NCBI GenBank assembly: GCA_963544395.1 | Contig: CAUUFA010000006.1 | Location: 37,997-101,996, forward strand | Direction: 5' to 3' | Length of the DNA: 64,000 nt | Origin: an uncultured Bacilli bacterium | GTDB taxonomy: Bacteria; Bacillota_I; Bacilli_A; RFN20; CAG-288 | Part shown: piece after piece, positions 27,264 through 35,935 of the stretch | How positions within the stretch are numbered: the first letter of the stretch is position 1 | Layout of the letters: the number at the start of each line of letters is the position of its first letter | The notes under the pieces: model-generated | What the model saw: only the letters and a program-made list of their open reading frames with translations | Database searches by the model: none | What the model was told of the DNA's origin: nothing | Made by a program: the position numbers and the translations under genes

Positions 27264-27312
27264 ACTAACATCAGATGAAATTGAGTTTTTAAGACTCAGA
27301 GCAGAGGATGGT

Positions 27313-27579
27313 GTGCCTCTTGGTGAATTCAACTACGGTTTATACTACCTTTTGTTTGAACATGATGAAAAAACCGCAGAGGAATGGTGGACCAAATTCT
27401 TTTATCACTCCAATGGGTTTGCTCTATGGAAGGCTAGTGGCATATTCGCTTATTTAGGTGATGAGTATTACGAATGGTCCATGAGATGCCTTAGGCGTAG
27501 CGCTTGGAGACAATTTAAAATTTCGAAGATGATGCTCAAGGATATGAAAGAACATCCTTATCAATTTCCTGAGGCATAG
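27313..27579 (+). CDS. Hypothetical 88-aa protein (GTG start), possibly a gene remnant
   Basis: This is the only sizeable ORF in the region and has an AGAGGA 4 nt upstream of the GTG. The Trp/Tyr-rich sequence has no recognisable motif. Confidence 0.35.
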   Translation: MPLGEFNYGLYYLLFEHDEKTAEEWWTKFFYHSNGFALWKASGIFAYLGDEYYEWSMRCLRRSAWRQFKISKMMLKDMKEHPYQFPEA

Positions 27580-27663
27580 AGAGAAGTATTTGAAGAGGAA
27601 AATATTATCTTAAAAATTTGACGATAAAAATCACTCGGGAATGTAGATTATTTAGAGATTTTA

Positions 27664-27678
27664 ATCTATATTATAGAT
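27664..27678. promoter_or_regulatory. Perfect 15-nt palindrome ATCTATA-T-TATAGAT (candidate operator) upstream of the AAA+ gene
   Basis: It was read directly from the sequence and lies about 25 nt upstream of a candidate -35. Confidence 0.35.
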
Positions 27679-27701
27679 AATAGGTTATTTAAATAGAGCT
27701 G

Positions 27702-27729
27702 TTGAGGCAACGTGGAAGAGTAATAAAAT
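27702..27729 (+). promoter_or_regulatory. Candidate promoter for the AAA+/DUF4177 operon
   Basis: TTGAGG (27702-27707), a 16-nt spacer and TAAAAT (27724-27729). Confidence 0.35.
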
Positions 27730-27789
27730 AAATCACATTTCACGTTCACTGCCTCTTATGATAAACTTTTAGAAACGTTGGTGAAAAGT

Positions 27790-33900: not shown

Positions 33901-34379
33901 TGATTAAACATATATACAACATACTGACTAGTCTAGCGCTAGTGATAACCGCGTTTGTAATCTGCTCTTGCACGCCTTCTATTAATTCTCTAAAAAACAG
34001 CTATGACATCGGCACAAATATAGATGATGTTATTATCAAACAAAAAGATAATGGTAGTTTTTTTGCATATGAAAATTACTGTTTTTGGAATGAAAATAAA
34101 TATAGTGTTAGTGTTCATTACAATGATGAAAGTAGGAAAATTGATAGTAACTCGTTTTCAAATAAATGTGTTGGTAGTAATGAAAAACTAACAAACATTA
34201 ATCACGGTGATGATATTTTTCGTGTTGTTTCCTTCTTAGGGGTGCCTATTTCAAGCGGAACATCAGGAGTTGAATCCCTAATATTTGATATGCAAGACGC
34301 CGATGGTTGCCTTGTGTACTTTTATAATGAGAACTCCTATTTGAAAGTTTCTCACTTAGAAATACTATCGAAGCCTTAA
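33900..34379 (+). CDS. Small lipoprotein (159 aa), candidate cognate immunity/partner protein
   Basis: The signal peptide is MIKHIYNILTSLALVITAFVICSC with a lipobox Cys. The ATG overlaps the upstream TAA (TAATG), and a GGAGG lies 7 nt upstream. Confidence 0.6.
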   Translation: MIKHIYNILTSLALVITAFVICSCTPSINSLKNSYDIGTNIDDVIIKQKDNGSFFAYENYCFWNENKYSVSVHYNDESRKIDSNSFSNKCVGSNEKLTNINHGDDIFRVVSFLGVPISSGTSGVESLIFDMQDADGCLVYFYNENSYLKVSHLEILSKP

Positions 34380-34586
34380 GGGGATCTCAATCAAAGAAAT
34401 CCGGCGCTATGAAATCTATGGCAGTATATCCTAGATGATACATCACCTTTAGTTTTTTAAGGTAAGCCTTGTCAATGACGTTTTAATTTTGTAACCTTTT
34501 CACGTTCAAAAAATGTCATATAAAATTATTTTTTAACTAAAATATAATCTCCTCTCTCCTTTAATCGATATGAATCTCCAATAATT

Positions 34587-35038
34587 TTAACTACATTCGC
34601 GTGATGTAATATTCCATCCAATATAGCCGTGGATATAGTGTATAGCACTGACCAATATAAAAACGAGATTCATCAATGTAATAACAAATTCAAATACAGC
34701 TGTAAAACCCCAACCTTCAAAGCCGATGAAATTAAAGAGAAGTTCCTTGTTGCTTATAGCAAAGTTTACTAAACAACCATACTTAAACCTAAACAATCTA
34801 GATTGAGGGTCTCTCTCGTAACGATATTGTTTTATAGCATCTTCATAGTTTTGACCAGAAGCGTTATTAAACCAATGTTGCTTGTCGATAGCGAAGATCC
34901 TGATGAGATAAGAGCATTAGTATCACTTGCTATAAATGATTTGAAATAAGACGATGAATCAATACCTAAAAAGCTCCACGTTAAAATCGGTATCATGTAG
35001 TATACAGAGTTAATTTTCGCTCTTAATATTGACATCAT
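34587..35038 (-). pseudogene. Disrupted small membrane-protein gene (two frames)
   Basis: The N-terminal part (MMSILRAKINSVYYMIPILTWSFLG...) and the C-terminal part (...NASGQNYEDAIKQYRYERDPQSRLFRFKYGCLVNF...TM helix) lie in different frames. The downstream frame has no ATG or GTG start (only the TTG start used in the ORF track). Confidence 0.4.
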
Positions 35039-35385
35039 TTGATGTACAGAAAGACATGAACGTAAACAGGTCTCTGATGAGAGTCAGAGATTTTTTTCTT
35101 GCCTCGGGTAGATCTCAATTCGGGACATCACAGACTTAGAATTAGACATTTGATAAGGAATATCAATAAAAACGCCTTCCGAGATTCCTGACACAAATGT
35201 TCTGCTTATTCAGTAAGAAAAACGTATGAAAATATTGAAGCATAATAAAAACACGGATAAGCAATTCTTATCTTAGGAATGGAAACGTTGTATGTTTATG
35301 AGCTGCCGGATAATTCGTACGACATCTTTTCAATTTCAGGCAGGATGAGTTCTTTTGCCTAAATCAATCGGGCCTCGTGCGTTAG

Positions 35386-35873
35386 ATGAATGTCATCAAA
35401 AGAAAGACGGACACAGTCGAGCGAATTGAAACGGCATTATGTACTTTATTGCAATCCGAAACGTTATCAGAAATCAAAATGCGTGAAATATGCTCTTTAG
35501 CAACAATCCATCATCAAGCGTTTTACAACCATCTATTTGATCAGTTTGATCTCTACAAAGAAATGGAAAACAAAGCCATTCAAGAGGCCTTGACGATCCT
35601 GTCCTCGGGATTTTCAGACAACGCTTCGAACAATCAGAAAGAATACCTTGATCAGATTGCCGAAACAAAATACTTTTCCGGCTTTTTCAGCAAAAAGATA
35701 CTTCGCAGTTCAAAGACGGGTTGCTAAACTCTATTTATCCAATCTTGGAAAAAGAGATGAAAATCATGAGCCGAGAGAAATACCGCAGATACTTGACTCT
35801 CTATATCCTATGCGGTCCAATCTCTATTTTTGAAGCTTGGTTCAAACAAGAGCGCAAAGAACCTTCCGATTAG
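35386..35873 (+). pseudogene. TetR/DhaS-like regulator gene interrupted by a single frameshift in an A5 run
   Basis: The N-terminal HTH (SEIKMREICSLATIHHQAFYNHLFDQFDLY) is in frame 1. The C-terminal part (DTSQFKDGLLNSIYPILEKEM...LYILCGPISIFEAWFKQERKEPSD) is in the -1 frame. The junction is at caaaaag, 35691-35697. Confidence 0.6.
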
Positions 35874-35935
35874 ATTGCATTCCTGATTTATAAGATTGCA
35901 GGAAATATCGACATCTACCGCTGAGAAAACAACCT

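Follow-up and report, generated by a model that had tools for sequence, protein, structure and literature searches.

How a block of AT-rich genes came to lie flush behind a tRNA gene, with no recombinase of its own, is the question raised by this locus, which is part of a window of 64,000 nucleotides (nt) from an uncultured Bacilli bacterium of the CAG-288 lineage (assembly GCA_963544395.1, contig CAUUFA010000006.1; all positions are those of the window). Islands beside tRNA genes are usually explained by integrases recombining within the tRNA 3' end. A preliminary description had treated the block, about 8.7 kb behind tRNA-Leu(UAA), as one island that was either decayed and immobilised or moved by an unrecognised mechanism. 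A single element was not what the present comparisons revealed: at least four separately acquired pieces were recognised, and the stretch at 27264–29885 is polymorphic within the species. The whole region between tRNA-Leu and a NifU-like gene (27264 to approximately 37450) is probably an accretion stack at a tRNA 3'-end insertion site. Two neighbouring parts carry the argument. The first, named segment A, is of phage origin and is found in some strains only. The second is a small module formed by a left-end sequence (LE), a gene for a winged helix-turn-helix (wHTH) protein and a gene for an XRE-family protein, and it is placed precisely at the CCA ends of tRNA and tmRNA genes in many genomes. 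The layout in the window is tRNA, then the truncated gene for a 136-aa protein, the AAA+ gene, the DUF4177 gene and a right-end sequence (RE), followed by LE, wHTH, XRE and the older pieces (Table 1).

The strain polymorphism was revealed by contigs of the same species from four samples, which are 99.5–100% identical. Segment A was present in ERZ21659627 and ERR10228871 and exactly missing in ERR16058330 and SRR33858004. The last two share an identical clean junction, CCA/TACG (the slash marks the junction), that is, GGGCACCA/TACGAAAATC and, in a longer reading, ...GGGCACCA/TACGAAAATCTGAGACAATCTG.... The dinucleotide CA is the sole microhomology between the two junctions of segment A, and the strains lacking the segment have the same layout of tRNA plus terminator as every congener. 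The three strain lineages are equidistant, with 30–41 single-nucleotide polymorphisms (SNPs) per 9.4 kb. The SNP density of segment B, located downstream, equals that of the core, so segment B is older than the split of the strains. On these alignments, the simplest reading is that segment A entered later, at a point between the CCA and the terminator.

The gene content of segment A points to a temperate phage. Its first gene is cut exactly at the tRNA end: homology to the 136-aa protein runs in frame from residue 32 (QLTS), and the first homologous codon includes the terminal CA of the tRNA. The protein has 88 homologs, nearly all of 136 aa. The homolog at 92% identity belongs to a prophage (L115) with head-tail connector, tape-measure and Dit genes and two large serine recombinases, and the gene was also detected in four IMG/VR viral contigs. 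With its left end falling inside a conserved phage gene, segment A cannot constitute a complete element. The homologs of the AAA+ protein at 89–90% identity lie on the same phage backbone, between genes for 125-aa and 141-aa proteins and upstream of large serine recombinase genes. No full-length AAA+ ortholog was found in 24 congeneric species. The G+C content of the AAA+ homologs matches that of their surroundings on AT-rich contigs, and the gene stands as an AT-rich cassette in several genomes of higher G+C. The AAA+/DUF4177 pair is kept in three other loci. In IMG/VR, close matches were obtained only for the 136-aa gene and none for the AAA+, wHTH, XRE and 773-aa genes. For the AAA+ gene, INPHARED phages and PLSDB plasmids yielded no match beyond distant FtsH-like ones. 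Segment A contains no phage structural or replication genes, only the truncated 136-aa gene, AAA+ and DUF4177, and the nearest relatives of its genes are in phage genomes. It is thus an internal fragment of a temperate-phage accessory region and no complete mobile unit, and the AAA+/DUF4177 pair would most likely be phage-derived exclusion or defence cargo.

The AAA+ gene resembles the IetAS system in that its AAA+ domain scores on IetA models (PADLOC IetA-like match, 7e-35, AAA domain only). With the NCBIfam IteA_antiphage model the score was 108 bits, the cut-off being 510, and higher scores were obtained from the CDC48, PAN and FtsH models. Unlike IetAS, no IetS protease partner is present: the next gene encodes DUF4177, and no S8 protease was detected in a six-frame scan of the island. 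In another genome an AAA+ homolog stands alone (L087, 9817–12060) between the 3' ends of convergent tRNA-Thr (109 nt upstream) and tRNA-Val (197 nt downstream) genes. At four loci (L131–L134), homologs of the 136-aa protein at 84% identity belong to defence islands. There they are flanked by a UvrD-like helicase and a Fic protein, Schlafen-like genes, an AbiEii gene and a type ISP restriction enzyme lie nearby, and a D5-type primase adjoins. Pieces resembling the L115 prophage (up to 94% amino acid identity) were also seen in the window's genome, G000, at C12:43569–44811, C2:150.4–154.7 kb and C9:65–911. They lie at contig ends and adjoin tRNA-Asn/Glu and tRNA-Arg, which suggests that the assembly of this genome has distributed one or more prophages of the large-serine-recombinase kind over several contigs.

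The module that follows segment A was found at the ends of many other tRNA genes. Its left end comprises an A-rich leader, an intrinsic terminator (29897–29923, 12-bp stem), the palindromic operator TTATTATCTAAAGATAATAA (29924–29943) and the motif ATTGTCTCA (29966–29974). When the wHTH protein was used as the marker, 14 loci were retrieved from 12 of 301 genomes of the order, in at least three families. At all 14 a tRNA on the same strand is directly followed by the wHTH gene. In most cases the tRNA differs, 12 different ones being occupied in total, and they include Leu-CAG, Arg-UCU, Arg-UCG, His, Met, Glu, Thr, Phe, Trp, Ser and one partial gene at a contig end. Chance adjacency was estimated by us at about 2% per gene, from some 35 tRNA clusters and roughly 1,500 genes. 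Similarity among the loci sets in 0–3 nt past the CCA, and the GACA stem lies 12–13 nt past the CCA in 14/14. The left-end consensus reads CCA followed by TtCGAAAAaCtG(A/C)GACA...TGTC, a T-run, a palindromic operator, a GAGACA/TGTCTC motif and the gene. In at least eight loci the wHTH gene shares its 3' end with an overlapping XRE gene that encodes about 184 aa. The window's 147-aa ORF has no counterpart at the other loci, whose wHTH and XRE genes overlap directly.

Near-identical copies at unrelated sites were the most telling. A copy in genome G281 has 91% nucleotide identity to window positions 29884–30210, although its site is tRNA-Leu(CAG) in another family. Two further genomes of different families (G179 and G047) share 1,392 nt at 99.3% identity, next to tRNA-His in one and tRNA-Glu in the other. 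Across the tRNAs the two loci are unrelated, and the identity extends from the first base past the CCA to approximately 55 nt past the XRE stop codon. Across the class the wHTH gene was detected in 43 of 399 genomes and 34 of 219 genera. Among the 16 high-scoring loci, one being the window, 12 of the other 15 are flush with a tRNA or, once, with tmRNA. The remaining three are flush with non-tRNA sequence ending in ...ACCCA. Two units stand in tandem, 5.5 kb apart, in one genome (G481), and two more copies of the module were found in the genome of the window, at C15:3662–5016 (flush with tRNA-His) and at C10:53810–54500. In full-text literature searches, a wHTH/XRE module lying flush against tRNA genes was nowhere described.

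Some copies have other surroundings. In three genomes, left ends (L270–L273, the first two at approximately 92.9 and 98.4 kb of G481:C1) lie against a conserved sequence other than a tRNA, with three GGGGTGTAA repeats ... CATACAACCCA. The C10 copy is preceded by ...GTGCCTTGCCA and GGGGTTGCAGT-like repeat units, with no tRNA. In two genomes (G565 and G570) a further 2.7–10.5 kb separates the nearest tRNA from the left end. Within the species, a 1-nt indel at 31402 in the XRE gene (an extra G in SRR33858004) gives ORFs of 147 and 184 aa in the window and of 144 and 113 aa in that sample.

Restriction-modification genes are the usual cargo of the module. In the related units the genes past XRE comprise DpnII restriction-modification, Tsp45I restriction-modification, a resolvase with a type IIG-like methylase, hsdS with a tyrosine recombinase, an hsdS fragment with GmrSD, and a wHTH::DpnII fusion. 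The XRE family profile matches the restriction-modification controller proteins C.BclI (1e-9) and C.AhdI (2e-6). The wHTH family is small and divergent (39 cluster representatives) and has no members in INPHARED phages or PLSDB plasmids, and its profile gave no significant match against PDB sequences. AbiEi_4 is matched weakly by 6 of 11 family members, in likeness to AbiE systems, but no AbiEii toxin partner was found, a XRE regulator being located downstream in all loci. The wHTH/XRE pair is most likely a regulator of cargo, akin to a restriction-modification controller protein.

The right end of segment A provided the second recurrent boundary. RE contains two GTATTATCTCACA repeats (29819–29831 and 29861–29873) and terminates in ...AAATTTAAAGACA, and the repeats include a half-site of the left-end operator. 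Genome G153 has, flush with tRNA-Arg, a unit of 1,860 bp whose right end matches RE at 87% identity, and in both sequences the similarity ends at the same base, directly after AAATTTAAAGACA. In G153 a native-looking terminator follows the right end. The sequences on the left-hand side of the junctions all end in CA: CCA in the tRNA, ACA in the right end and AACA at the break of the 136-aa gene. In exact-pattern scans no viral contig was matched by the right-end repeats and no metagenome contig by the 3' half of the species' tRNA-Leu. The G153 unit itself (L231, contig C18, 1035–2894) is minimal. Its wHTH contributes the N-terminal 87 aa of a fusion protein whose other part is a DpnII restriction endonuclease. 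A methylase is lacking, and the fusion gene is followed by a 199-aa zinc-ribbon membrane protein and then by the right end.

The extent of the foreign DNA was then delimited by composition and synteny in this genome of 1.59 Mb (22 contigs, 48.4% G+C). Homologs with names belong to Anaeroplasma, Acholeplasmatales, Erysipelotrichaceae and 'Candidatus Enteromonas', which places the bacterium among the Bacilli with small genomes. As the preliminary description had stated, composition changes sharply at the last base of tRNA-Leu; the G+C falls there from 0.51 to approximately 0.33. Values of 0.51–0.52 at 26250–27249 give way to 0.32–0.37 from 27250 on and return to 0.47–0.55 only past 35750; 2-kb windows below 40% G+C make up only about 5% of the genome. 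The sliding G+C, third-codon-position (GC3) and dinucleotide analyses agreed that the island is atypical. GC3 was 0.26–0.30 for the AAA+, DUF4177, 773-aa and 180-aa genes versus 0.55–0.69 for the flanking core genes (pgi, ispD, NifU, metK and their neighbours), and the island has a dinucleotide signature distance (delta*) of 113, compared with a median of 38 and a 95th percentile of 88 across the genome. The AT-richness holds overall, with the exception of the XRE gene, whose GC3 is 0.66. The five tRNAs ending in Leu(UAA) and the gene content given earlier were recovered by ARAGORN, Pfam and PADLOC, and Rfam matched nothing but the tRNAs in 26600–31600. The earlier view of housekeeping flanks stood for the left side only, the FAD oxidoreductase on the right being foreign and located inside the inserted region.

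The insertion point is the CCA end of tRNA-Leu at 27263, with foreign DNA from 27264. Among congeners the tRNA operon after pgi is conserved, and four of them (pgi approximately 70% identical) share the order pgi, tRNA operon, NifU, a Zn-phospholipase-like (PLPC) gene, TSCPD, a decarboxylase and HPF. The distance from tRNA-Leu to NifU is about 120 bp in one (G008) and 1.1–1.6 kb in the other three. An intrinsic terminator lies 10–50 nt past tRNA-Leu in 17/17 congeners, and none of these 17 loci carries island genes. Across relatives, homologs of the AAA+, 773-aa and wHTH genes occur sporadically, which favours foreign origin. Every congener has a different content between tRNA-Leu and NifU, that is, it turns over between core flanks. 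The search for empty sites proposed earlier was productive at two levels: in congeners the tRNA operon is followed by a terminator and then NifU, and two assemblies of the same species lack segment A. Since the four syntenic congeners have no FAD oxidoreductase before NifU and the window's gene is a xenolog, the insert extends to approximately 37450 and includes this gene.

The contigs of many congeneric assemblies (G012, G023, G001, G003, G018, G017 and G021) break off within 1–3 kb downstream of tRNA-Leu, which suggests a site that varies throughout the genus or resists assembly. A second, milder dip in G+C (0.41–0.43) was seen at 42250–43250, spanning the mini-III RNase-like gene and the stretch upstream of the hibernation factor gene.

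Association with tRNA genes was also evident genome-wide. The genome has 31 AT-rich patches with a length of 1.5 kb or more and a G+C below 40%. A tRNA adjoins 12 of them, and all 12 lie on its 3' side; the random expectation is 1.6, with a maximum of 7 in 2,000 trials. The 1.5 kb downstream is below 40% G+C at 9 of 33 tRNA clusters, and the 1.5 kb upstream at 1 of 33. Most of the patches begin past a terminator.

The distal pieces have histories of their own. The 773-aa protein has 235 homologs, some with a Peptidase_C39_2 match (the NCBIfam Mplas_Cys_pep match is weak). Paralogs occupy other AT-rich patches of the genome, and no ortholog was found in congeners. Its 71–75% homologs in other genomes also lie 3' of tRNAs, in contexts that are otherwise unrelated. 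Together with the 180-aa gene, it is an older accessory cassette. The following part is decayed, as shown by the IstB stub (translation AILDGILHHANVVKIIGDSYRLKERG), a split membrane gene and the frameshifted TetR pseudogene. An IS21 insertion sequence was considered and rejected, only the 29-aa IstB stub being found in place of IstA, full IstB and inverted repeats.

The FAD oxidoreductase (G+C 0.53) is the window's only copy and was present in all strains examined. It shows 79% amino acid identity to Gemmiger/Subdoligranulum proteins, versus 41–50% to the single orthologs of congeners, which are located elsewhere in their genomes. A comparable site exists in five congeners, of which four have no such gene before NifU and one (G014) carries a 45% homolog 6 kb downstream of tRNA-Leu. 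By these identities the gene is a xenolog acquired from Oscillospiraceae, and it appears to have replaced the native copy.

Table 1. Coordinates of the features in and around the tRNA-Leu-to-NifU region, with the basis of each assignment.
Feature	Position	Strand	Basis
Five-tRNA operon (Val-UAC, Tyr-GUA, Gln-UUG, Lys-UUU, Leu-UAA)	26748..27263	+	ARAGORN, Rfam
Truncated 136-aa phage/mobile-element gene, 3' two-thirds	27262..27579	+	Homolog alignment; ORF finder: 88-aa ORF 27313-27579
Segment A, 2,622 bp, between tRNA-Leu CCA and terminator	27264..29885	+	Strain comparison
AAA+ ATPase, classic, lipoprotein/transmembrane-anchored	27778..29613	+	PF00004 4e-37 and AAA lid domain
DUF4177 small protein, translationally coupled to AAA+ gene	29594..29812	+	PF13783 2.5e-11
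Right-end sequence (RE), last 85 nt of segment A	29801..29885	+	Similarity to G153 unit
Left-end sequence (LE): A-rich leader, terminator, operator	29886..29984	+	Terminator scan
wHTH protein, AbiEi-like N-terminus, 233 aa, module marker gene	29985..30686	+	PADLOC AbiEi 2e-5
147-aa ORF, partial duplicate of XRE N-terminal domain	30637..31080	+	27% identity over 81 aa
XRE-family protein, 184 aa, C-terminal HTH plus N-terminal domain	30941..31495	+	HTH_3 4e-10
Secreted 773-aa papain/C39-like peptidase-like protein and 180-aa lipoprotein-like ORF	31579..34379	+	Homolog search
IS21 IstB helper ATPase C-terminal remnant, approximately 29 aa	34553..34640	-	Pfam IstB_IS21 2.7e-5; NCBIfam PRK09183 2e-7
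TetR-family regulator pseudogene, frameshifted	35386..35900	+	ORF 35386-35727; TetR_C_8 in another frame, approximately 35679-35900
FAD-dependent oxidoreductase	35936..37357	-	Homolog comparison
NifU-like gene	37560..37913	+	First syntenic core gene on the right

The machinery that could have placed these pieces was searched for in the island and beyond. No tyrosine or serine recombinase, transposase or relaxase was detected by six-frame Pfam searches of both strands of 27264–35935; the earlier statement to this effect is corrected only for the IstB remnant. The last 11–23 nt of tRNA-Leu have no copy within 20 kb at up to three mismatches, in agreement with what had been reported, and a general repeat search was also empty. 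A duplicated tRNA segment is lacking in six of seven tested loci, the window included. A whole-genome scan found four tyrosine and two serine recombinases, all outside the island. Inspection of the junctions by eye gave no convincing dyad symmetry of the serine-recombinase attP kind. A right-end-like terminus near 37454 (TGAGATAAT) was considered as the right boundary of segment B and was unconvincing. Nothing in the window is able to move on its own now. The earlier alternatives apply to different parts: "decayed and immobilised" describes the distal part (IstB remnant, frameshifted TetR, split membrane gene), and an insertion mechanism that is unrecognised or acts in trans is a live possibility for the LE/wHTH/XRE module, segment A being incomplete with a left end that cuts a phage gene.

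In the accretion model, unrelated foreign pieces would have inserted successively at or behind the last tRNA 3' end, each pushing the older ones downstream, and the order of acquisition, as read from position, would run from the oldest (distal) to the newest (proximal). The FAD oxidoreductase xenolog from Oscillospiraceae would have come first. It would have been followed by the remnants now decayed (TetR pseudogene, IstB stub, split membrane gene), by the secreted peptidase-like gene with the lipoprotein-like ORF, and by a module of about 1.6 kb consisting of the left end with its own terminator and operator, wHTH and XRE. The last arrival, in some strains only, would be the 2.6-kb temperate-phage accessory fragment ending in the right-end sequence. 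The proximal pieces may have been placed by conservative site-specific recombination, with the crossover in the CA that terminates the tRNA. Both ends, left and right, share operator half-sites and would be bound by the DNA-binding proteins of the module, and the catalytic recombinase would be supplied in trans or be of an unrecognised kind. For segment A two models both fit. In one, aberrant recombination of the right end with a pseudo-site in the 136-aa gene would have produced a 2.6-kb circle, which would then integrate between the CCA and the left end by conservative recombination with a CA core. In the other, a donor carrying a right-end/left-end junction would have recombined homologously with the resident wHTH/XRE module and been joined illegitimately on the left side, where the tRNA end is almost the sole viable joint.

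Several observations weigh against this account. The window encodes no recombinase, and the related units carry none consistently, the only cases being a resolvase in one unit and a tyrosine recombinase beside hsdS in another; site-specific recombination is therefore indicated by the precision of the junctions alone. Family profile searches recognised no catalytic domain in the wHTH or XRE protein, and a single-sequence AlphaFold model of the wHTH protein reached a pLDDT (the predicted confidence score) of 44, a value that does not permit fold searches. At the far end of one relative (G163), the 3' end of tRNA-Met is repeated with 20/23 matches, the arrangement known from classical attachment (att) sites. 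The left end of segment A is a truncated gene and no left-end sequence, and its arrival needs an aberrant event, either a pseudo-site circle or homology-facilitated illegitimate recombination.

Other explanations account for parts of the same evidence. It seems unlikely that the region is a recombinase-free hotspot, filled by homologous recombination in conserved flanks (the tRNA operon, or the resident left-end/wHTH/XRE module) together with illegitimate joining after transformation or transduction, the flush junctions merely reflecting selection for an intact tRNA. Such a hotspot would agree with the lack of a recombinase in the island and with a segment A that has a truncated gene at one end and only 2 nt of microhomology. 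A donor with right and left ends could anchor on the resident 1.6-kb wHTH/XRE homology, and to the left of that anchor a viable joint would have to fall either at the end of the tRNA or inside the left end's 11-nt leader. Hotspots without mobile elements, with recombination at flanking core genes, are also documented (PMC5635113). However, this explanation does not account for the 1,392-nt unit that is 99.3% identical at two tRNAs in different families right from the CCA, for the constant stem offset of 12–13 nt in 14 loci, the targeting of tmRNA and the tandem units, or for the right end stopping at the same base in two genomes. Different tRNAs, moreover, have too little sequence in common for homologous recombination. 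In another reading, the LE/wHTH/XRE unit would be an autonomous, hitherto unrecognised site-specific mobile element or integron-like platform, one or both of its small DNA-binding proteins catalysing insertion past the CCA of tRNA or tmRNA and capturing right-end cassettes. The 1.39-kb unit at tRNA-His and tRNA-Glu encodes only the two module proteins, operator half-sites stand at both ends, right-end/left-end junctions and tandem units exist, the cargo varies between conserved ends, and no family member is carried by sequenced plasmids or phages. Against it, no catalytic motif or fold was detected, the XRE HTH resembles a restriction-modification controller and the wHTH an AbiEi-type regulator, the family is small (39 cluster representatives), and some relatives have a resolvase or tyrosine recombinase, one of the relatives having a classical tRNA-end repeat. 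We consider this autonomy rather improbable.

A single classical integrase-borne island or prophage, with integrase and attR lost by decay, would explain the position next to a tRNA, the atypical composition, the pseudogenes and the phage-derived genes. It is largely refuted and very improbable, since one part is polymorphic within the species with a clean junction, and the components have GC3 values of 0.26–0.69 and unrelated nearest relatives. The FAD gene comes from Clostridia, AAA+ from a phage with large serine recombinases and wHTH/XRE is independently distributed, and homologs of each component occur separately elsewhere. Least credible of all is a native origin of the low G+C, for instance by relaxed selection on surface-protein genes. 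The genome does contain about 30 AT-rich patches, several with 773-aa paralogs, but the region is lacking at the congener site, its GC3 is 0.26–0.30 versus 0.55–0.69 in the core, and homologs at 80–92% identity lie in unrelated contexts and in phages. This origin is refuted by the empty sites of congeners and by presence and absence among strains.

The accretion stack was also compared with known systems. In streptococci, integrative elements accrete together with non-autonomous cis-mobilisable elements (CIMEs): successive insertions at one att site give arrays with internal att-like junctions, and the non-autonomous units have kept their ends and lack recombination genes. The att sites there are clear direct repeats, on which an identified tyrosine integrase acts. 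The stacking of units at one site is alike, but here only CA is shared. Islands that target tRNA or tmRNA with tyrosine (P4-type) or serine integrases are similar in their 3'-end site, atypical composition, defence or accessory cargo and tandem arrays, and the G163 relative keeps a degenerate tRNA 3' copy. They differ in that the window and most of the related units lack an integrase, no tRNA duplication was found in six of seven loci, the junction lies past the CCA and thus outside the tRNA, and a near-identical unit occurs at different tRNAs. Hotspots without mobile elements, for which homologous recombination in flanking core genes is the model (Oliveira, Touchon and Rocha, 2017; PMC5635113), share the variable region between core genes, the proximity to tRNAs, the defence-type functions and the lack of integrase and transposase. 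A conserved module placed with base precision at many tRNAs is, in contrast, not predicted by that model. With integrons the analogy is functional only: the resident platform carries regulators, and the newest right-end cargo unit would lie beside the insertion point. Unlike in integrons, the insertion point is a tRNA end, and six-frame Pfam searches of the island found no IntI tyrosine recombinase.

Most of the stack is thus ordinary, consisting of foreign cassettes, phage debris and pseudogenes at a tRNA hotspot. The placement of the module, precise to the base, independent of the tRNA and without a recombinase, is beyond the integrase, transposase and homologous-recombination models. Whether a new insertion mechanism lies behind it can be answered only tentatively, and we lean towards the negative. 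With similar reserve, the LE/wHTH/XRE unit (29886 to approximately 31550) might be a small site-specific element family or integron-like landing platform distributed across Bacilli. Such a unit could conceivably insert right past the CCA of any tRNA or tmRNA gene and bring its own terminator along. It might, somewhat speculatively, capture or exchange right-end cargo such as restriction-modification systems and phage-derived cassettes. The activity responsible would then be other than tyrosine, serine, DDE or HUH, a doubtful but conceivable one that could come from the two DNA-binding proteins or from a host factor recognising tRNA 3' ends.

A "recombinase-less island" can arise from unrelated insertions stacking at one phosphodiester bond, and caution is needed before such regions are annotated as single elements. 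The compact two-gene module within this stack stands base-precise past the CCA of tRNAs of a dozen or more kinds as well as of tmRNA, and usually heads a restriction-modification or defence cassette. If its placement is enzymatic, it would represent either a new targeting and insertion mechanism for any tRNA gene or the mobilisation in trans of many non-autonomous defence cassettes.

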